Of a stretch of 10,954 bases of DNA, positions 2-10,811 are shown piece by piece. The position numbers and the translations under genes are program-made. Numbering within the stretch: position 1 is the first letter of the stretch; every line of letters begins with the position of its first letter. The stretch is from Bdellovibrionota bacterium. Lineage in GTDB: Bacteria; Bdellovibrionota_C; UBA2361; JBIKWN01. The notes below the pieces were generated by a model. It made no database searches, had not been told where the DNA came from, and saw only the letters and a program-made list of their open reading frames with translations. The stretch spans positions 1 to 10,954 of the forward strand of contig JBIKWN010000076.1 in NCBI GenBank assembly GCA_044356295.1, written 5' to 3'.

Positions 2-1612
2 AGCGGTAAAAATCTCTCGTTGCAGTAAAGAAGTAACATCTTCAGCGGAACTTGCTGCAATTTGCATACATCCAATTAATCGAGAAAAAAATTGGGCAGA
101 AGAAACTTTAGATTTTAGAATCAATGCATCATCTTTTAAAACTGAACAGCTTCCAGATGTAATCACTTCAACAAGCTGAGACGCAGTAATAGAGGTAGGA
201 GAAATTGTTGAAAGAATTTTATTAAAAGAGATCTTTTGAGCAGTTGTGATCCCCTTCTTTTTAGAAATTGTTTTAAGATCCGAAATTTTCTTTTTGTGAT
301 CTACTGGATTTAAATCTGCAAAAAGTGAAACGATACGCTCTTCAATCAAAGAGCGATATTCTGCGCGTATATCTTTAATAAGTAACCCTAAAAAAACATC
401 TATAGAGTCAGTGTCTTTTGGACTTAGCCTGTCAAAGGCAATAAATATTTTAGCCCAATCTTCCCTAGACGGGTCTTTAATTATTTTTAGAAAGTCATCT
501 CTGATTTTTTTTGAAGCTGCTGATTTTGGAGCAATTGCAACGAGTGAATCAATAAGCTCAGGTTGATTCGCTTTTATTATCGGAAGAATTTCTGCTTCTA
601 AATCAGCAGGAATAGTACTCAGGCTTGCTCCAATAACAGCGATATTTTTCTTGTCTATGTCATCAGCACCTTTTAATGAAATACGAAGCTCAGTACCAAT
701 AATAGCTGAAGCAATATCTTGTTGTTTTTCTACGGCTTCTGAAGTTGACGTCTGACTAAGAAGTTTAAGAATACCAATCTGAAGAGTCTTAAATTCAGAA
801 ATATTGAGACTTTCAAAAACAACACGAACAATTTCGGGATGTAAGAGTGATAATTCAGGTAGTGAAGACAGAAGCGCAACCCCAACCCCTCTTTTCTTTC
901 CACCTTCCTTGATAAAATGTTGTGCCAATATCAGGGAATCAGTCTGTGAAGCAGAAGCATGTAGGATTAATTGAGCAATAGCGTATTCTGATAATGAAGA
1001 AATAATTAATCTATCGATAATGAAATCTTTTTTACGAGTAAATAGTTCAAAAAGAATATTTTGAGCAGAAGCAACTTGATGGAGCTCGAGTTCTCTGACC
1101 GAAAGATCTATTAACGATAGTATTTGAGTTTCATCAGTCACTCGAAGCGCCATTAACGATGAGGTTCTAGGGGCGCCAACTCTTAAAAACTCAGGATTAG
1201 ATATGTCATGTTCTAGAGTAAAAAGTGTTGGAATAACTTTTAATGATTCAGGTAATAGAAGAGGAAGAATTGCTAAAGCACATTCCTTTGCTGTTTGATC
1301 CCTTTCAGCATTATTAATTGCAACAAGTTCACCAATTTTTGGTTCATCGAGAGCTGCTATTCCAATACGATTAGGAGTACCGGGAGGTGGTATGTTATTA
1401 CTTCGTGCCCCCAAAGACTCTTTTGCTTTCAAAAGATTATTTAAAAAAGATGAAAAGCTATGTTTCTGATCTGGGGTTAGGGTGCCTGCAATAATTCGAG
1501 CATTGGCACAATCACTATAGATAGCCCTTTTAATATCATCCTCAGCAAAAGCTGCGGAAATTCCAAATCTAAGAAAGAGAACAAGGCATATCCCGAAATT
1601 GAAAGACTTCAT
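2..1612 (-). CDS. Large exported hypothetical protein, predicted alpha-helical (possibly HEAT/ARM-like solenoid); 3'-truncated at window edge, >=537 aa
   Basis: Manual translation from ATG at 1612 shows no stop before the window edge: MKSFNFGICLVLFLRFGISAAFA|EDDIKRAIYSDCANARII...EDVTSLLQREIFTA. The ATG overlaps the TGA of the upstream ABC gene (ATGA) and is preceded by a purine-rich GAGACAGGGG. The N-terminus looks like a Sec signal peptide with an A-F-A cleavage motif. The body is rich in Leu/Ile/Ala amphipathic segments. The fold assignment is an inference. Confidence 0.85.
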   Translation of the reverse strand, partial: MKSFNFGICLVLFLRFGISAAFAEDDIKRAIYSDCANARIIAGTLTPDQKHSFSSFLNNLLKAKESLGARSNNIPPPGTPNRIGIAALDEPKIGELVAINNAERDQTAKECALAILPLLLPESLKVIPTLFTLEHDISNPEFLRVGAPRTSSLMALRVTDETQILSLIDLSVRELELHQVASAQNILFELFTRKKDFIIDRLIISSLSEYAIAQLILHASASQTDSLILAQHFIKEGGKKRGVGVALLSSLPELSLLHPEIVRVVFESLNISEFKTLQIGILKLLSQTSTSEAVEKQQDIASAIIGTELRISLKGADDIDKKNIAVIGASLSTIPADLEAEILPIIKANQPELIDSLVAIAPKSAASKKIRDDFLKIIKDPSREDWAKIFIAFDRLSPKDTDSIDVFLGLLIKDIRAEYRSLIEERIVSLFADLNPVDHKKKISDLKTISKKKGITTAQKISFNKILSTISPTSITASQLVEVITSGSCSVLKDDALILKSKVSSAQFFSRLIGCMQIAASSAEDVTSLLQREIFTA

Positions 1613-3303
1613 ATGTCCCCTGTCTCACATTCCAAGCGCCAATTTCCTCCGCCAGTAAGATCGAGCACGACATCATGATATTTTGAAAGTGATGTGCTGT
1701 AACCAACTGAAACATAACTTTTAACTACAGATTGAAGTTTTTTGTATAAAACCTCTTCCATTTTTTGATCGAGTGCTGTGGTGGCTTCGTCGAGAAATGC
1801 ATATTTTGGTTTCGAAATAAGAAGCCTTGCAAATGAAAGTTTTTGCTGTTCACCAGTAGACAAAATATTTGGCCAATCAACGACGATGTCAAAGCCACCA
1901 AGACGATGAAACATATCCTCAAGTTTTACTGTTTGGATAATTGAAAAAAGGTATTCATCTGAAAGTGCTTTATGTTTTGATGTATAGAGAAGTTGACTTC
2001 TAAGGGTCCCAAGTACCATGTACGGACGTTGCGGTAGGTACATTGATTCTTCACGAGGTGGTGCTGTAATAATTCCTTGACCTGACCTCCATAAGCCTGC
2101 CATTACCCGAAGCATTGATGATTTTCCTGCACCACTTGTGCCAGTGATCAGTAGTGATTGCCCTACTTCGAGTTCTAAGGACATCTCTTTTAAGAGAACC
2201 TGATCTTTCTTTGGTGTATAAACAGAGACTTTTTCGAAATGTATTGCTTCACCATGCTTTAGGATAATTTGTGAGCCGATAAGATCTTTATTACTTTCAA
2301 TTGTATCAAGGGCTTCCCAGAAAGCGCCCAGTCGTGAAATCACAGCTCCAAATGAAGAGAGACTTCCAAAGTTTTGAACGATGATAGAAAGTGCGCCCAA
2401 TACTTGACCAAACGCAAACCCCGCTTGAGTAATTTTTCCAAATTCTAAATCACCATTTAAATACGCCGGCGCAACAATAACTGTAGGTAAAATAGAAACA
2501 AGATAGTTATAGCCGGTAGTGAAAAAATTAAGATTTCTGTTCCAATTAACTATCTCTAAGAGATTGATAAGAGCGATTTTTAGTTTTTGACGAGAACGTG
2601 TTTTTTCTTTCTCTTCATTTCCGTAAAAAGCGATGCTCTCTGCGTTGTCTCGGACATTGATTAACTTATATCTATAATCTGCTTCTTTTTTTAATTGAGC
2701 AAAATTTAATCCAATTAAAGGACGACCTAAAAAATAAGTTGATAGAGAACCAAAAATTGCATATCCAATCACTGAAAAAACAAGTGTTGGAGAAATAGCC
2801 CACAGAATTCCCGTAAACGAAAAAAGTGCAATGAATGAATTAAGAATAATGAGAAGGAATGAAATACTTTGCGAAGTAAAAGCACGTATATCTTCAGCGA
2901 TACGTTGATCAGGATTATCTACCCCTTGAAACGCGAACATTCGATAATAAGCACCGTTAGAAAGATAGCGGTCGATCATTTTTCGACTCAGCCACCTTCT
3001 CCAAAGAAGCGCTAGTCGCTCTTCGGTATAGCGGTAAAAAACAACAATCGGCGTTGCACATGCAAACACTAATAAGTATCGATAGAGCTGCCTAATAAAT
3101 TCATCGCTCTCTCGAAGTGAAAGAGCTGTCATAAAATCTCGCCCTACGTAACTGAGGAATACGTTTACTCCACTTACCAAGAGGGCAAATCCGAGAAGGA
3201 CGAATAAAAGACCAAGTGCAGCAAAACGCATTTCAGAAACAAAGAATGGCTTTGCTATGCTTTTGAACTGAATCCAGGTTTGGCGATTAATACGTGACGA
3301 CAC
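1609..3303 (-). CDS. ABC half-transporter, fused permease + ATPase, ABCD/YddA/BacA(Rv1819c)-like family (ABC_membrane_2)
   Basis: Multiple hydrophobic TM segments in the N-terminal ~330 aa. Family motifs DNPDQRI and EAA-like NAESIAFYGNEEKE. Walker A GTSGAGKS, Q-loop YLPQRPY, signature LSTGEQQ, Walker B FLDE and D-loop TALD. GTG start. Confidence 0.93.
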   Translation of the reverse strand: MSSRINRQTWIQFKSIAKPFFVSEMRFAALGLLFVLLGFALLVSGVNVFLSYVGRDFMTALSLRESDEFIRQLYRYLLVFACATPIVVFYRYTEERLALLWRRWLSRKMIDRYLSNGAYYRMFAFQGVDNPDQRIAEDIRAFTSQSISFLLIILNSFIALFSFTGILWAISPTLVFSVIGYAIFGSLSTYFLGRPLIGLNFAQLKKEADYRYKLINVRDNAESIAFYGNEEKEKTRSRQKLKIALINLLEIVNWNRNLNFFTTGYNYLVSILPTVIVAPAYLNGDLEFGKITQAGFAFGQVLGALSIIVQNFGSLSSFGAVISRLGAFWEALDTIESNKDLIGSQIILKHGEAIHFEKVSVYTPKKDQVLLKEMSLELEVGQSLLITGTSGAGKSSMLRVMAGLWRSGQGIITAPPREESMYLPQRPYMVLGTLRSQLLYTSKHKALSDEYLFSIIQTVKLEDMFHRLGGFDIVVDWPNILSTGEQQKLSFARLLISKPKYAFLDEATTALDQKMEEVLYKKLQSVVKSYVSVGYSTSLSKYHDVVLDLTGGGNWRLECETGDI

Positions 3304-3572: not shown

Positions 3573-5507
3573 TCAAGTGAGTTTTAGATCTCTTATCGAT
3601 TTGGATGCAAGGTGACAAATACCAGCCTCGCACAGAAAAAATTCTGTTTCATGATTATTTGAAATTTTTTCTTTAATAGTATCGACATGAGATATTGTAT
3701 TTTTATGATGGACGAAAAGAGCGATCGTTGGGTCAAGTTGTAAAAGATCTATTTTTTCTTTTGAGACATTAATTGCAATCACTTCTCGCTCATACCTTTG
3801 TTTAGATATGAAATATCGATTCATTGCGGATGGATATGTAGCAGCAATCACTGCAAGAGAATTATCCAATGTAGTATTGATAGTAAACCATTGGTGGGAA
3901 GAAAACGCTTTGCTTAGAAATTTTGTATTTGCAAGTGAAACAGAATTCGGCGAAGGCATTGCTCCATCAACAATTTCAAAGCGCTCGACAATCAGATCGC
4001 TTGCTGATGAAGATTTATATAATCCCCGATCTGCAACCCAAAGGGCTTTATCTTGTTGTTCTTGAAGATTTTTTGCTAGCAGCAACCAGTCCTCATTGAA
4101 GTCTGATTGATAAAGGTGAATTAGGCCTTCGATAAGATATGCATAATCTTCAAGAGTTGCATTGATAGTACGTATCGTCTTAGAAAGAATTCTGTTTAGA
4201 GGTTTTTCTCTAAAAGTTAAAAAATGTCTTGCAAGTTTCTGTGCAGATTCTAAGTACGTTACAGATTTTGTTTCTCGGTATAAAACACAGAGCGCTGAAA
4301 GAATTAAGCCATTCCATGATGTAATTACTTTGTAATCACATAGGGGGCGTTCTCGTTTCTGTCTTAGCTCTCGAAGTTTTTCGTACAATGGGTCTAGTTT
4401 CTGCGAGGTAACGTCTGCGAGTGACTTTCCTACAAGCGAAATATTTCCTTCGAAATTGCCTTCTGTGGAATACTCAAAAGTTTCCGCAAGAATATTCCTT
4501 AGTTCGGTTGGTAACTCAGAAATTTCTTCAGGGCTCCAAATATAATACTCACCTTCTTTGCCAACATCGCCTGCATCTTCAGCACTCATGAATAATCCAT
4601 CTGGAGTTTGCATCTGGTACAGTAGATACGCTGCAGTTTTTATCGCAACCTGTAAAAAAGGTTGAAAGCCTGAAACTCTAAAACCTTCGACGAATGCTTG
4701 AATGAGTAGTGCATTGTCATAAATCATTTTTTCGAAGTGCGGGATTTCCCAAGAAGCATCTGTTGCATATCGATGAAACCCGCCCTCAACATGATCAAAC
4801 AATGCACGTTTACCGATATGCTCAAGGGTCGTTAAAGCAGCATGATGAAAATCTTGGGGAGCATCTGGATACATGAGTAGTGATTGTATCTGCTGACTTG
4901 GTGGAAATTTTGGTGCTGGTCCGAACCCACCATAGTTTCTATCAAAATTTCTAAGGAGCGCTTCGCACCCCCTCTTCCAACTATCTTGTAGATTATACTC
5001 TTTACCGAGCGCTCCCTTCTTTTGATTACCAGCTTCTAATGCAGCAGTAATACTTTGTGCGCTTTCCAGAATTTTCTCTGGTTCAGTTGTCCAGATCTCA
5101 TGTAAACGTTCACACAGAGAGATAAATTGTTGTTGTTTAACAAATGTACCACCCCAAAATGGTTTCTTATCGGGGGTCATAAAGATACTCATCGGCCAAC
5201 CACCGTGGCCTGTTAACCCCGTAACTACATCCATGTAGATTTGATCTACATCTGGGCGTTCTTCTCTATCGACTTTAATTGAAACAAAATTACTGTTTAA
5301 AACATCTGCAACTGACTGTATTTCGAAAGAGTCTTTCTCCATCATATGGCACCAGTAACAGGTGGCATATCCAATAGAGAGAAAAATTGGCTTATTATCT
5401 CGTTTAGCAACTTCAAATGCTTCATCGCACCAAGGATACCAATCAACAGGATTGCTTTTATGTTGCAAAAGGTACGGACTTGTTTCGCTTTGAAGATGAT
5501 TTTGCAT
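3573..5507 (-). CDS. yyaL: Thioredoxin-domain protein of the YyaL/SSP411 (SPATA20, DUF255) family with C-terminal six-hairpin glycosidase-like domain
   Basis: Family hallmarks [37 protein letters not shown] (CxWC), [47 protein letters not shown] and DGAMPSPNS. Confidence 0.93.
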
Positions 5508-6142: not shown

Positions 6143-7009
6143 ATGGTCAAAAAAGCCACAATAATCATGCCGACACATGATCACGGCGAGCTAATACATA
6201 GTTCGATTAGATGTGTTCTGGCACAGACATGTGATGATTTTGAATTTTTCATTATTGGTGATGGAACGCCTGAAATAACAAAACAAATTATAAAGGAATA
6301 TCAACAGAAGGATTCTCGAATCTCGTATTTTGATTTCCCGAAAGGTCCAAGACTTGGAGAAGCATACCGCCATGAAGTGCTGCAAAAAGCTTCAGGCAAA
6401 ATTGTCTGTTATGTCGCAGATGATGACATCTGGCTTCCTCATCATGTTGAATATATGTATGAACTACTTGAAGACAAAGATTTTGCACAAGCTTTTCGTC
6501 TTACGGTGCTCCCTGACGATAAAATCTTTATTGGTGATGGTCATTTTGACGTACCATGGCACAGAAGTGATCTTTTAGCAGGAAGAAATTTTGTTGGGCT
6601 TACTGCTGCTGCACATACTTTGTCGTTTTATCAAAAACTTCCCTTTGGATGGCGAACAACTCCGGTAGGGATTCCGACTGATCTCTATATGTGGCAACAG
6701 TTCTTAAATCAGGACTCATGCCGTCCTGTTACTGGGCTTCGCCCATCGGTTATCGGTTTAGCTCAGGCGTTAAGAAATGAATCATCTTTTGACCAGCGCC
6801 TCGATGAACTACTAAGGTGGGAATCGTTTGCTGGGGCAAGCAATGCCGAACAAAAGGCTTCGGAATTAGCTCTCGATTTTCTTTTATTTAGAAGAGCAGA
6901 ACTCGAGAAAGCATATCAAGAACATCAAATTGCTTACCGTAATCATCTTCAAGTTGTTGCAGATTACGAATCGAAGCTCGCTGCATCGAATCAACCGTTG
7001 AAAGATTAG
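6143..7009 (+). CDS. Glycosyltransferase family 2 (GT-A fold) with C-terminal helical/coiled-coil-like tail
   Basis: ATIIMPTHDH...SIRCVLAQT..DFEFFIIGDG N-terminal GT2 signature, ASGKIVCYVADDDIW (DxD motif) and a TDLYMW acceptor-region motif. The tail RRAELEKAYQEHQIAYRNHLQVVADYESKL is amphipathic. Confidence 0.9.
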   Translation: MVKKATIIMPTHDHGELIHSSIRCVLAQTCDDFEFFIIGDGTPEITKQIIKEYQQKDSRISYFDFPKGPRLGEAYRHEVLQKASGKIVCYVADDDIWLPHHVEYMYELLEDKDFAQAFRLTVLPDDKIFIGDGHFDVPWHRSDLLAGRNFVGLTAAAHTLSFYQKLPFGWRTTPVGIPTDLYMWQQFLNQDSCRPVTGLRPSVIGLAQALRNESSFDQRLDELLRWESFAGASNAEQKASELALDFLLFRRAELEKAYQEHQIAYRNHLQVVADYESKLAASNQPLKD

Positions 7010-7010
7010 A

Positions 7011-8975
7011 CTAAATAAACTGAGGGTGGTTTCTAATTCTAAAGATAAAATCCTCACGCTCAGATTCCTCTAAGTCTGCAGGAAACTGTGAATGACTTCT
7101 TTCCCAGCGAGAAAGCCATTTTGCATCAAGCAGAGGATAAGATTCTTTTTTGGCAGCTTCGGCTGTGAGCATCACAGTTGTTTCTGTTTTTTTCCCAGTT
7201 GCACTTCCATATGCTACATAAAATCCAGCAGCAAGAAGAGCAGCTCGAACCCTGGTAGCAGCTGAAAAAGTAAATCCTGACCAAGAACCAGATCCAATCG
7301 ATGCAAAAAGAGTTTGAAAAGTTTTATAGGTCCAAAGAGGGCTATCTACTTTATAAGAAAATGGATCGTAATACACAATATCGGGCAAAGAAGCCGCAGG
7401 ATAGGTTTTCATAAAATCATCAAGGTACAGATTCCACTGAAACTGTTCAGCAGTAATTTTTTTCTGGTTATAAAGCTCTGTGACCCAAGGATGTTGAGCA
7501 TGTGGAAATTTTGCTTTCTTTGATAAAACTAATTCAAGTGGCTCAAGGGTGATTTCAAAGCTTTCAATAAGTAGGTTACAAACTTTCTCTCCTTGCTCTT
7601 TAAGAGCAAGCCAACAAGAAATAGCACCCATCGCATTTGTGGCAGCACCGAGCCCAACATCCCAAATAGTAACTTGAGGTTCTGACAAGAATCTCTCTTT
7701 TAATTTTGCCTGCTCAACATATAATGTATTTGATTCTCGGTAAGGATCTTCTGAGGAGTGCATAACTTCTCCTGAATCTCGGTGTCGAATTGAAACGACA
7801 TATTTATTCTCTCGATTTTTTCTCTCAACAATTTCGTAAATTTTGCCTGGTGTCGTCTCTTCTTCCTCTGAAAATAATTTTCTTGTTTTTTCGTAATAAT
7901 CACCAAAGGTACCTTGCCTGAGGTTGGTGCGGATATCATTCATGATAGCTCCATAGAAATGAATATTATGAAGCCCTATCCAAGAGTGGCTACTTACATC
8001 ATATGTTTTAATTAAGTGATGAAGATAACTTCTGGTGTAATTTTTACAGGTAAAGCAATCACACTGTGAATCGATTGGGTTTTGATCATCAAAGAAGATA
8101 CTTTTTCGAAGATCAATTTTTCCGGTTCGATTAAAAGCAACACCTTGTTGCCCAAGCATCGTAGGCAACACACAATCAAACATATCAATGCCGCGAGAAA
8201 CTGCTTCAAGTATATCAAGTGGAGTACCAACACCCATAAGGTACCGCGGTTTTCCTTCAGGTAAGTATGAAGCAACAAGTCCTGTCATTGCTTCACGCTC
8301 ATCTTTTCCTTCTCCAACGGCAAGTCCACCGATAGCGATTCCACAAAAAGGCATTTCACTAATTGCCTGTGCACTTTCAATACGAAGTTTTTCAAAGCAG
8401 GCACCTTGTACAATCCCAAACATCCCCTGAGTGGAATCCTGCTTAGCAACTAAAGAACGTTTAGCCCAACGATGAGTCAATTGCATTGCTCGTGCTGCAT
8501 CATCATAGGTTGTTGTTGATGGAACACATTCATCGAGAACCATCATGATATCACTTTGGAAAGCTCTTTGTGCTTCGATGCTTATTTCAGGGGATAGAAA
8601 AATTTTTTCACCGTTTACATGATTTCTAAATACGGCACCCTCTTCTGTGATTTTTCTTGCATGAGAGAGAGAAAAAATTTGAAACCCTCCTGAATCGGTA
8701 AGAAAACCGTATGGCCATTTTGAAAACTCACGGATCCCAGTCCCTTTATTAGTAAAGAATGAAGCTCCTGGACGAAGAATAAGATGATAGGTATTAGCCA
8801 AAAGCATTTGGAAACCCATCTGTTCAATTTCACTTATTCGTTGAGAGCGTATTGCAGCATGAGTCCCAACAGGCATAAAAATAGGAGTCTCAACATCTGC
8901 ATGAGCTGTTTTTAAGTGCCCTAACCTAGCTTTAGTAGAGGAACATTTTTTTTGTATCGTGAATGAAACGCTCAT
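7011..8975 (-). CDS. tgt: tRNA-guanine transglycosylase (aa ~1-368) fused to MnmC2/MnmD-like SAM-dependent methyltransferase (aa ~378-654)
   Basis: TGT motifs: TPIFMPVGT, NTYHL, TDSGGFQ, MVLDEC, GIVQG, GGLAVGE, PRYLMGVG, DMFDCV, and Zn site C305-x-C307-x2-C310 with H336. Methyltransferase motifs: GEVMHS, WDVGLGAATN, ESFE, DIVYYDPFS..DSPLWT, TFSAATRVRAALLAAGF and GKKTE. One continuous reading frame. Confidence 0.92.
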   Translation of the reverse strand: MSVSFTIQKKCSSTKARLGHLKTAHADVETPIFMPVGTHAAIRSQRISEIEQMGFQMLLANTYHLILRPGASFFTNKGTGIREFSKWPYGFLTDSGGFQIFSLSHARKITEEGAVFRNHVNGEKIFLSPEISIEAQRAFQSDIMMVLDECVPSTTTYDDAARAMQLTHRWAKRSLVAKQDSTQGMFGIVQGACFEKLRIESAQAISEMPFCGIAIGGLAVGEGKDEREAMTGLVASYLPEGKPRYLMGVGTPLDILEAVSRGIDMFDCVLPTMLGQQGVAFNRTGKIDLRKSIFFDDQNPIDSQCDCFTCKNYTRSYLHHLIKTYDVSSHSWIGLHNIHFYGAIMNDIRTNLRQGTFGDYYEKTRKLFSEEEETTPGKIYEIVERKNRENKYVVSIRHRDSGEVMHSSEDPYRESNTLYVEQAKLKERFLSEPQVTIWDVGLGAATNAMGAISCWLALKEQGEKVCNLLIESFEITLEPLELVLSKKAKFPHAQHPWVTELYNQKKITAEQFQWNLYLDDFMKTYPAASLPDIVYYDPFSYKVDSPLWTYKTFQTLFASIGSGSWSGFTFSAATRVRAALLAAGFYVAYGSATGKKTETTVMLTAEAAKKESYPLLDAKWLSRWERSHSQFPADLEESEREDFIFRIRNHPQFI

Positions 8976-9054
8976 TTGGTCTAATGCTGTGTTCTAAGAT
9001 AAATCTGTGCTAAAAAGTAAGTTACAGAAAGCTGTATTAAAATATTTAAGTTCT

Positions 9055-10017
9055 ATGACCCAACAAAATTCCCAACGAATTAAAATTGGTACGAGAGGCA
9101 GCGACCTTGCCCTCTATCAAACTAATTTTGTTCGAAATGCTCTGTGTGAGAAATTTCCCTCTCTTAGCATCGACATTATAGAGATTAAAACACTTGGTGA
9201 CAAAAAACAGGGCACTTCACAGGCGGCCTTTGGTGATAAAAAAGACTGGGTCTATGAACTAGAGATGGCTTTACTTGATCAATCGATAGATATAGCTATT
9301 CATTGTGGTAAAGATATTCCTGGAAATACTGAACCTGGACTCTCGCTGATTCCTGTCATGGAACGAGAGAGTCCATACGATATTTTCATTGGACGAAAAA
9401 AAGAATCTGGTGGAAGATTTTCTTTTGAAGAAACGTTGTCGCAATATTCACATTCAGGATCTTTTAAAATTGGCACTGCTAGCCTTCGAAGAAAAGCTGC
9501 AATAAAGAAATCATACCCTCTTACAGAACTCGTAGATCATAGAGGTAATGTTCCAACCCGAATTAAAAAGCTTGATGAAGACTCATCGCTTTCAGGAATA
9601 ATCCTTGCTGAAGCAGGTGTAGTTCGATTGAAAGCGCTTTCCAAAAATGAATTTTCAAGAATACCATTTTCAATTTCAGTCCCTGCAATGAATCAAGGAA
9701 TACTTGCAGCGCAGTTTCGAGATGATAATTTTGATATTAAAGATAAGCTCGAAGCGATTTCTTCAATAGACTTGAAATCAATCTTTTTTGCAGAGAGAGA
9801 AGTAGCAAAAATTTTGGAGGGCGATTGTAAAACTGCTATCGGAATCTTTGCTGAGCTTAAGACTAAAGAGCAAGGAACACTTTACTGTGAAGTCTATGAT
9901 CCAAATGGAATAAAAAGTATTAAATCTTCTAAAGATTTTGCCCTTTCTGATTGGAAGAGTGCAGCAAACGCACTTTGTGATGAGCTCATTATGCACGGCG
10001 CAAAAGCTCTTTTGTAG
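9055..10017 (+). CDS. hemC: Hydroxymethylbilane synthase (porphobilinogen deaminase), divergent
   Basis: IKIGTRGSDLALYQ, IKTLGD, DIAIHCGKDIP, GTASLRR, RGNVPTRIKKLD, ILAEAGVVRL, PAMNQG and AERE...LEGDC (cofactor-attachment Cys). ATG at 9055 is preferred to GTG at 9007 because homologs start a few residues before IGTR. Confidence 0.92.
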   Translation: MTQQNSQRIKIGTRGSDLALYQTNFVRNALCEKFPSLSIDIIEIKTLGDKKQGTSQAAFGDKKDWVYELEMALLDQSIDIAIHCGKDIPGNTEPGLSLIPVMERESPYDIFIGRKKESGGRFSFEETLSQYSHSGSFKIGTASLRRKAAIKKSYPLTELVDHRGNVPTRIKKLDEDSSLSGIILAEAGVVRLKALSKNEFSRIPFSISVPAMNQGILAAQFRDDNFDIKDKLEAISSIDLKSIFFAEREVAKILEGDCKTAIGIFAELKTKEQGTLYCEVYDPNGIKSIKSSKDFALSDWKSAANALCDELIMHGAKALL

Positions 10018-10028
10018 TTTTCTTACAG

Positions 10029-10811
10029 TTAAGGTATCTGCTTCACTGGGTGATAGATTTTATTCCAACGTAACCCTGCTCGTTTAAACCCTGGACGCCA
10101 TCGTAGGGTTCCTTCATCTAATCGACCAATAGGAGTTGGAGGGGTTCCGATGTAAAAATTCTTATTTTCACGAATTCGAAATGGACCGTTACCGCCAAAA
10201 TCACCAATTGTAAAATGATTGCGATGAAGAAGTGTTGGAATAAGAACTTCAGAATGTCCTTTCCACCCTTCGCTTAGTTTTAAATCAATAAACTGCAATG
10301 CTTTTTTTGAAATACGATAGATTGGATGAAAACAACGGATTCTTTCTTCCAGAGGAATTGAATCAGTGTGATGTTCTAAATTCCAAAAAAACCAATATGG
10401 TTCTTCTTGAAAGGTATGTATATGAGAGGCTACAAAATCATACTGAGTTTCATGAAATGATTGAAAAAAAGTTTTCCAAAATCCCCTAAATCGAACATCA
10501 AACTCGATAATCCAAAAGTAATCATATTCTGGATGTGCTCTTGCAAAATGAATAAGTGAAAAAGGAGCACTTCCAGGAACTACTGTTTCTGCGATCATTT
10601 GGAATCCTAGGTTTTTCAGGTCGGGCAATGAGCAGTAGTGAATAGGAAGTTGATCTGTATGGCTGGGTGGTTGAGAAGCGTTTTTTTGCTCACCTTGAAA
10701 GAGTATCCATGTATCACCGAATGAGTTCGTGGCTTTCGCTATTTTACTAGCCTCATGACGCACACTGTCATTATCTAAATGAGTAAGGATCAGGAAGGCG
10801 CCTCGTGGCAT
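10029..10811 (-). CDS. DUF3405-like protein, probable GT-A-fold glycosyltransferase/glycan-modifying enzyme
   Basis: YDYFWIIEFDVRFRGFW (ExD in a DxD-like context), PIYRISKKAL, GHSEVLIPTL and C-terminal IYHPVK match my recollection of DUF3405 proteins. A GGAG lies upstream of the ATG. Confidence 0.6.
   Translation of the reverse strand: MPRGAFLILTHLDNDSVRHEASKIAKATNSFGDTWILFQGEQKNASQPPSHTDQLPIHYCSLPDLKNLGFQMIAETVVPGSAPFSLIHFARAHPEYDYFWIIEFDVRFRGFWKTFFQSFHETQYDFVASHIHTFQEEPYWFFWNLEHHTDSIPLEERIRCFHPIYRISKKALQFIDLKLSEGWKGHSEVLIPTLLHRNHFTIGDFGGNGPFRIRENKNFYIGTPPTPIGRLDEGTLRWRPGFKRAGLRWNKIYHPVKQIP

Follow-up and report, generated by a model that had tools for sequence, protein, structure and literature searches.

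What task could a single protein have that joins a complete tRNA-guanine transglycosylase (TGT) to a methyltransferase of the kind that acts on aminomethylated wobble bases? The question is raised by the window studied here, the whole stretch of 10,954 nucleotides from a Bdellovibrionota bacterium (contig JBIKWN010000076.1 of assembly GCA_044356295.1). A single open reading frame (ORF) of 654 amino acids (aa) plus stop, P0001, occupies positions 7011-8975 on the minus strand; on the plus strand of the same stretch reading is interrupted by many stops. An earlier note, made from the letters alone, had described one ORF in which a TGT and a methyltransferase are connected by an acidic linker (SEEEETTPG, aa 369-377). 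This architecture was confirmed here and placed on the minus strand, which that note had left unstated.

By the usual view, the queuosine pathway is closed and each bacterium has one transglycosylase for it. Our answer for the fusion, unproven and offered as the best single reading, is tentatively that it is a two-enzyme RNA wobble-base modification protein whose halves would work in succession. The N-terminal half, a Tgt paralogue, would swap a guanine in an RNA loop for a 7-deazaguanine of the preQ1 type, and the C-terminal half, an MnmC2-like methyltransferase dependent on S-adenosylmethionine (SAM), would then methylate the exocyclic CH2-NH2 group. The resulting N-methyl-preQ1 would offer an end product other than queuosine. 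In this scheme we infer which base is inserted, which atom is methylated, in what order the two steps occur and which RNA is the target.

The fusion is real and widespread

A search with the C-terminal 285 residues returned 423 proteins, and both Pfam domains were present in all 120 that were listed. Furthermore, a pattern scan over one genome per species, whose counts are lower bounds, gave 599 candidate stretches, of which 590 were confirmed as relatives encoding the C-terminal domain; the family is therefore carried by at least 590 species genomes. It was present in all 81 loci compared (the window and 80 kept), as a single ORF of at least 600 aa in 73 and as shorter family ORFs in the remaining eight. 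By their record titles the carriers include Bdellovibrionota, Oligoflexia, Bacteriovoracaceae, Opitutaceae and other Verrucomicrobiota, Kiritimatiellia, Lentisphaerales, Riflebacteria, Binatia and Steroidobacteraceae, as well as Leptospira ilyithenensis and L. ognonensis. The nearest of them, L004, is from Bdellovibrionota and is 81% identical. Among 41 relatives of the window's genome the domain was found in 12 (9 of the 31 high-quality genomes), with a patchy distribution across families; in the same genus an 86%-complete genome has it and a 62%-complete genome is without it.

The earlier note had named an assembly artefact absent from relatives as one of the findings that would overturn it. 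This was ruled out by the intact ORF in 73 of 81 loci, by the presence of the domain in the 86%-complete genome of the same genus and by the species count above. The note's statement that TGT is normally a stand-alone protein holds, but the fusion is common, not rare. Its supposition that similar fusions may be in databases was borne out by the 423 proteins, and the available text of one preprint also gives a bare listing (bioRxiv 10.1101/2023.12.21.572861). In public annotation the fusion proteins are called plainly 'tRNA guanosine(34) transglycosylase Tgt'.

A TGT paralogue with an intact active site and a changed RNA side

The TGT domain spans aa 15-366 (positions 7878-8933, minus strand) and was assigned by Pfam (PF01702, 441 bits), NCBIfam and alignment. 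The NCBIfam equivalog model for Tgt, TIGR00430, gave a full-length match of 421.9 bits, above its cut-off of 306.75. A set of 50 genomes, consisting of the window's own and 49 others with the fusion, was used to ask what accompanies this domain. At least two TGT matches were present in 48 of the 50, the shorter frame measuring about 370-460 aa and the longer about 670-870 aa, and the two exceptions (G017 and G039) have the fusion only. The second TGT of the window's genome is a protein of 370 aa encoded on another contig, 1.7 kb downstream of queA; by eye, the ORFs after this stand-alone tgt are yajC- and secD-like.

In a quick IQ-TREE analysis 73 fused TGT domains were compared with 31 stand-alone TGTs of these genomes; the fused set fell on one side of a branch with SH-aLRT support of 100, and taxa were intermixed within it. 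Fused and stand-alone domains are 37.5-46.5% identical to each other. Outside the fusion, TGT of the fused clade was seen only as two truncated relics, one in G105 and one as a third copy in G046, both of which end inside the linker.

Residues are numbered below as in the Zymomonas mobilis (Zm) TGT, by alignment to chain 1ozm. In the window protein the catalytic D94 and D267 correspond to Zm D102 and D280, the preQ1 pocket consists of D148, C150, Q190, G217, L218, A219, V220 and E222, and the zinc site of C305, C307, C310 and H336. Zm residues D102, D156, C158, Q203, G230, L231, A232, V233, E235, Y258, M260 and D280 are invariant in all 73 fused domains, and the zinc ligands C318, C320, C323 and H349 are likewise kept in 73 of 73. 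According to established knowledge and the available text of PMC6165067, the signature residues of Tgt are Asp102 and Asp280 for catalysis, Asp156, Gln203, Gly230, Leu231/Ala232 and Glu235 for the pocket and CxCxxC...H for zinc, with Cys158 and Val233 specific for preQ1. The pocket of the window protein and of every one of the 73 fused domains is thus of the preQ1 type (Cys158, Val233) and not of the queuine type. Because the catalytic, pocket and zinc residues are kept throughout, the fused TGT half should be active in base exchange on a preQ1-type base. As a separate observation, in the zinc columns Zm C318, C320 and C323 between 6 and 11 of the 31 stand-alone TGTs (L084-L113) are aligned without the cysteine that all 73 fused domains have, which may reflect a misaligned variable loop.

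The residues on the RNA side have changed. Stand-alone TGTs have arginine at both Zm 286 and Zm 289 (31 of 31), as do the T. maritima and Z. mobilis structures, whereas among the fused domains Arg occurs at position 286 in none of 73 (Q, A, S, M or E instead) and at position 289 in 2 of 73 (mostly Q). The window protein has M273 and Q276 here, and the two relics carry Q or A at the first position and Q at the second. Additionally, the fused clade has new invariant basic residues at Zm M240 (R in 73 of 73) and N304 (R or K in 73 of 73), together with Zm Y161 to S (70/73), P162 to T (71/73) and G69 to A (72/73). Arg286 lies on helix alpha-B beside the ribose-34/phosphate-35 pockets (PMC5395182, in its accessible part), and in the sources available to our literature search on the role of Arg286 and Arg289 this location was all that was found. 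The replaced arginines suggest, from the alignment, that the RNA is held differently from the canonical U33-G34-U35 substrates or is not identical to them.

Some of these substitutions could also be read as an adaptation to another base. If free preQ1 were methylated first, the paralogous TGT would insert N-methyl-preQ1, and the changes at Y161, P162 and G69 would fit a bulkier base. The clade-specific Ser and Thr stand beside Cys158, where stand-alone TGTs have an aromatic residue and Pro, and bacterial TGT accepts N-substituted preQ1 analogues according to the accessible text of PMC9561289. We consider this reverse order unlikely: the solved and characterised MnmC2 relatives that were matched (E. 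coli MnmC and Aquifex MnmC2) act on tRNA-bound nucleotides, and the residues that keep the pocket narrow, Cys158 and Val233, show no change in any of the 73 fused domains. The altered RNA side would also suit a TGT half that no longer exchanges bases and serves as an anticodon-loop clamp for U33-N34-U35, presenting 5-aminomethyluridine (nm5U) at position 34 to the methyltransferase. It is established knowledge that the tRNAs with mnm5s2U, those for Lys, Glu and Gln with UUN anticodons, share U33 and U35 with TGT substrates. In a mere binding module, however, an invariant nucleophile, general acid and whole 7-deazaguanine pocket (73/73) would be unexpected, and we regard the clamp as quite improbable.

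The near-exclusive fusion of this TGT clade, its intact catalysis and the coexisting canonical Tgt together lead us to propose that the two halves share a task which the housekeeping enzymes do not perform. The simplest such task would be to insert preQ1 and then N-methylate its aminomethyl group, possibly in an RNA that is bound unlike the canonical substrates.

A separate subfamily of MnmC2-like methyltransferases

The acidic linker covers about aa 367-378 (7842-7877, minus strand) and is followed by the MnmC2-like SAM-dependent methyltransferase domain at about aa 379-612 (7140-7841, minus strand), which was assigned by Pfam, NCBIfam, alignment and fold. A C-terminal helical extension of about aa 613-654 (7014-7139, minus strand) carries the pattern WL.RWERS ... 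HPQF, conserved in the methyltransferase subfamily. Methyltransf_30 (PF05430) matched aa 493-601 with 45.9 bits and passed its gathering cut-off of 22. The NCBIfam model for the MnmC2 domain, NF033855, matched aa 399-600 but at 78.6 bits fell short of its cut-off of 136; against this model, subfamily members that stand alone scored 62.8-77.2 bits.

The domain contains the motifs WDVGLGAATN (aa 438-447), SFE, DPFS, LWT and G.K..TT. The pairing of its motifs with those of E. coli MnmC, given in the earlier note, was reproduced in a hidden Markov model alignment to 2qy6, the N-terminal domain of E. coli YfcK, where the counterparts read GfGtglN, isFE, flDgFapaknpdmWt, tFtsagfvrrglqeaGF and GrKrE. 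E474 (in SFE) aligns to Glu-101 and D537 (in DPFS) to Asp-178 of E. coli MnmC, and all 36 fusion proteins compared have both; in MnmC these two residues are critical for SAM binding and methyl transfer, according to the accessible part of PMC3648344. A structure model of the domain was confident, with a predicted local distance difference test score (pLDDT) of 91.4 and a predicted template modelling score (pTM) of 0.90. Its best PDB match was 3vyw, the Aquifex MnmC2 (E 5e-15, TM 0.70, about 20% identity), followed by MnmC methyltransferase domains of E. coli and Yersinia (2qy6, then 3ps9, 3awi and 3pvc). Both the profile and the structure comparison thus agree with the Methyltransf_30/MnmC assignment that the earlier note had expected for this half.

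A further Methyltransf_30 match was found in 20 of the 50 fusion genomes, and in eight of these, both Leptospira species included, it is a canonical MnmC or MnmC2 (112-126 bits). The fused domains of the 50 genomes scored 42-66 bits on Methyltransf_30. With a profile built from the fused domains, the canonical MnmC proteins of the same genomes reached 19-56 bits versus 200-400 bits for members. By these scores the methyltransferase half is a separate subfamily from canonical MnmC. Together with the TGT results, the comparisons make both halves paralogues of housekeeping enzymes, a relationship that is new in this analysis.

Do the two halves act on the same nucleotide?

The genes around the two pathways were scored in the 50 fusion genomes. 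Matches above cut-off were found for queA in 46, queF in 43 (the window's genome among them), mnmG in 49 and MnmM in 3. In the window's genome queA, queF, mnmG and a canonical tgt are all present, and the fusion is its only Methyltransf_30 protein. The presence of queF in 43 of 50 makes a supply of preQ1 in the carriers plausible. Of the genes that the earlier note had proposed to profile, the second, canonical tgt (48/50) marks the TGT half as a paralogue, but in 30 of the 50 genomes no Methyltransf_30 protein was found other than the fused one.

Several observations weigh against successive insertion and methylation. With a sole Methyltransf_30 protein in those 30 genomes, MnmG in 49 and MnmM in 3, the fused domain could simply be the nm5U methyltransferase. 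Ordinary queuosine synthesis, given queA in 46 of 50, would compete for preQ1-tRNA, and seven of the 50 genomes, all three Riflebacteria among them, have no queF above cut-off. N-methyl-preQ1 itself was met in our literature search in phage DNA only, with no report found for tRNA. The full-length structure model is confident for each domain (pLDDT 90.4), but its pTM is only 0.60 and its linker disordered (pLDDT below 50 at aa 372-376), and no fixed arrangement of the two domains or active sites is indicated by it. No conserved gene neighbour was found among the 81 loci. The argument from the two replaced arginines presumes that Arg286 and Arg289 contact the tRNA around U35, as is reported for the 2003 TGT-RNA complex structure.

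Further points come from methyltransferases that occur apart from the TGT. A search at stand-alone lengths gave many fragments and, in addition, proteins of about 292 aa that recur on long contigs. When 1.84 billion representatives were searched with a profile, 459 proteins were found at E 1e-30 or better, and most of the best 150 of the 459 are 250-340 aa long with the whole domain covered. A methyltransferase tree was computed by FastTree only, with 95 fused, 98 stand-alone and 5 canonical domains; the stand-alone rows start with M, have 330 aa or less and a domain beginning by residue 30, and some may be fragments. The canonical domains are set apart by a branch of 3.5. At the base lie clades of stand-alone sequences only (28, 14 and 6), and the fused domains are nested, with scattered stand-alone rows among them, a pattern suggesting a stand-alone ancestral state and later fission.

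Furthermore, of 121 genomes sampled from the order around G043, a strong methyltransferase match was present in 43, and 40 of these 43 had at least two TGT matches. The other three, G067, G108 and G115, combine a stand-alone methyltransferase with a single TGT of canonical score, and in G108 the methyltransferase gene directly follows trmD. Stand-alone members in genomes whose sole TGT is canonical show that the methyltransferase can be useful without a TGT of its own. Among the 78 genomes without a strong methyltransferase match, six had at least two TGT matches, and the one inspected, G105, is the genome with the fused-clade relic.

These results make a strong rival of the view that the fusion houses two independent activities. 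Here the C-terminal half would be an ordinary methyltransferase converting nm5(s2)U to mnm5(s2)U, as Aquifex MnmC2 does via the MnmEG ammonium route, and the N-terminal half a second queuosine-type TGT with a separate role that has nothing to do with the methylation, for example different expression, other tRNA isoacceptors or salvage. The closest solved relative is indeed Aquifex MnmC2, and the basal stand-alone clades fit this view, as does the finding that a stand-alone member accompanied by canonical TGT only is the sole Methyltransf_30 protein in 5 of 5 such genomes, one of them with the trmD adjacency. The 30 fusion genomes have no other MnmC2 or MnmM candidate, with MnmG present. Additionally, canonical MnmC (4 genomes) and the fusion type (12) never occur together among the 41 relatives of the window's genome; of the others, 22 have no Methyltransf_30 match and three have an unclassified or marginal match only. 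The 22 genomes imply that the activity is dispensable in the order, which does not settle the choice between the readings.

Two independent activities would, however, leave unexplained a redundant TGT paralogue whose catalytic residues are kept in all 73 domains and which persists almost solely in fusion with this methyltransferase. By established knowledge the substrate tRNAs of the two pathways differ, with GUN anticodons in one and UUN in the other; canonical MnmC is already present in 8 of the 50 fusion genomes, the MnmC2 equivalog cut-off is missed, and 22 of the 41 relatives do without a Methyltransf_30 match. We regard ordinary nm5U methylation by the C-terminal half as somewhat unlikely, its standing as a strong rival notwithstanding, and retain preQ1 insertion followed by N-methylation as our preferred, tentative reading. 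The proposal of the earlier note that both halves act on one nucleotide stands in part: the TGT half is a dedicated paralogue beside canonical tgt with a preQ1-type pocket, queF is frequent and 8 of the 50 genomes have a canonical MnmC in addition, but the methyltransferase subfamily also occurs alone beside only a canonical TGT, and the alternative that the note itself gave, two independent wobble enzymes sharing a chain, stays a strong rival.

In several loci the two parts are separated or altered. In G139 (L127) and G114 (L134) TGT and methyltransferase parts lie in one frame with one in-frame stop between them, TGA in G139 and TAG in G114; possible explanations are recent fission, read-through and an error in sequencing. 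G074 (L145) has a 596-aa fusion-type gene at 15558-17348 (minus strand) in which only the first half of the methyltransferase part is left (34% identity), and an intact stand-alone methyltransferase copy at 7051-7935 (minus strand) of the same contig, 8 kb from the decayed fusion. A DAO gene near this stand-alone copy was considered as MnmC1 and rejected at 47.5 bits versus a cut-off of 174. In the three Riflebacteria genomes two full-length mnmG genes lie some 2 kb from each other on one contig (G017:C50, G029:C47 and G030:C19), and no QueF match was found in these genomes.

The patchy distribution in 12 of 41 relatives, as for accessory genes, would also be expected of a Dpd-like 7-deazaguanine modification of DNA combined with methylation, and the phage base mdPreQ1 exists in DNA (PMC10516641, in its accessible text). 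A DNA target is nonetheless very improbable for this protein. It has no PADLOC match at E 0.01 or better, and hence none to DpdA (the canonical Tgt of the genome gave a weak 28.9 bits); it passes the tRNA Tgt equivalog cut-off; defence or phage genes do not recur beside the fusion; and the validated mdPreQ1 methyltransferase, DpdM, belongs to a different family in the available text. The probability left after the readings above falls to the clamp, a DNA target or something else.

Genomic surroundings

The fusion gene is solitary in the window. A GT2 glycosyltransferase gene (6143-7009, plus strand) is convergent with it and hemC (9007-10017, plus strand) is divergent. Neighbours that recur among the 81 loci are generic only, namely an ABC ATPase (11 loci), a response regulator (10) and a histidine kinase (8), and their distance and orientation vary. 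Neighbour clusters 1-6 were rejected, as they are mostly shadow ORFs overlapping the fusion gene; among the at most 14 members printed per cluster the sole non-overlapping one is L036 (cluster 5), and a few members, from loci without a family ORF above 500 aa, could not be placed.

The other genes of the window are as follows on the minus strand. For an open-ended ORF of at least 537 aa (2-1612), whose N-terminus is hydrophobic, Pfam gave no match at E 0.01 or better. An ABC transporter of the SbmA/BacA-like kind, fused to an ATPase (1609-3303), and a 644-aa DUF255 thioredoxin-domain protein (3573-5507), both identified by Pfam, are ordinary neighbours. A 260-aa ORF (10029-10811) has as its sole Pfam match a 41-residue stretch of DUF3405 at 30.8 bits.

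Significance and comparison with known systems

If the preferred reading is true, a second intact TGT and an aminomethyl N-methyltransferase would indicate a branch of 7-deazaguanine RNA chemistry that databases now conceal under the name 'Tgt'. N-methyl-preQ1 would be a 7-deazaguanine modification not yet reported in RNA; the fusion itself is carried by the at least 590 species counted above, Leptospira, Opitutaceae and Bdellovibrionota included. The protein would also supply a natural enzyme that inserts and methylates a base at a specific site, and would allow a change in the RNA specificity of TGT to be studied. With slightly less assurance than the two-step scheme itself, we propose that a patchily distributed bacterial enzyme writes N-methyl-preQ1 in RNA, and that the altered face of the neofunctionalised TGT may target RNA beyond the four canonical GUN tRNAs. 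If the methyltransferase is instead an ordinary MnmC2, the fusion would mark the missing mnm5U methyltransferase of several phyla, and the TGT paralogue would still need explaining.

The sole mention of the fusion that our literature search found, in the sources available to it, is in section 6 of bioRxiv 10.1101/2023.12.21.572861, where a TGT-MnmC2 fusion (COG0343/PF01702) is listed along with four other kinds of MnmC2 fusion. This is a one-sentence listing; in the accessible text 'TGT' occurs once and no function is proposed.

DpdM, the phage N-methyltransferase of dPreQ1, carries out the same reaction as proposed here, but in DNA (PMC10516641, in its accessible text). The earlier note was therefore right that N-methyl-preQ1 is in print for phage DNA, but DpdM, a DUF3109/YkgJ protein with an unrelated metal-binding fold, offers no precedent for an MnmC2-like domain. 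The window protein matches no Pfam family other than PF01702 and PF05430; DUF3109 with its CxxxCxxCC metal motif is not among its matches.

The comparison with bacterial Tgt (TIGR00430; 1ozm, 2ash) shows both likeness and difference. About 50% of the residues are identical to the Z. mobilis enzyme in the alignment. None of the catalytic, preQ1-pocket or zinc residues has been lost, and most residues of the dimer interface (Y330, H333, E339) are retained. Unlike bacterial Tgt, the TGT of the fusion is a second copy in a separate clade, without Zm Arg286 and Arg289, with new basic residues at Zm 240 and 304 and with a C-terminal methyltransferase.

Similarly, the methyltransferase half resembles MnmC2, both the domain of E. 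coli MnmC and the stand-alone Aquifex aeolicus protein (3vyw), in Pfam family, in fold and in the equivalents of Glu-101 and Asp-178. It differs from MnmC2 in its low identity of about 20%, in forming its own subfamily with the WL.RWERS...HPQF extension and in being fused to TGT and not to MnmC1, the flavin adenine dinucleotide (FAD) domain. As with MnmC2, the reaction proposed for the fusion would place a methyl group on the nitrogen of an exocyclic aminomethyl group of a wobble base.

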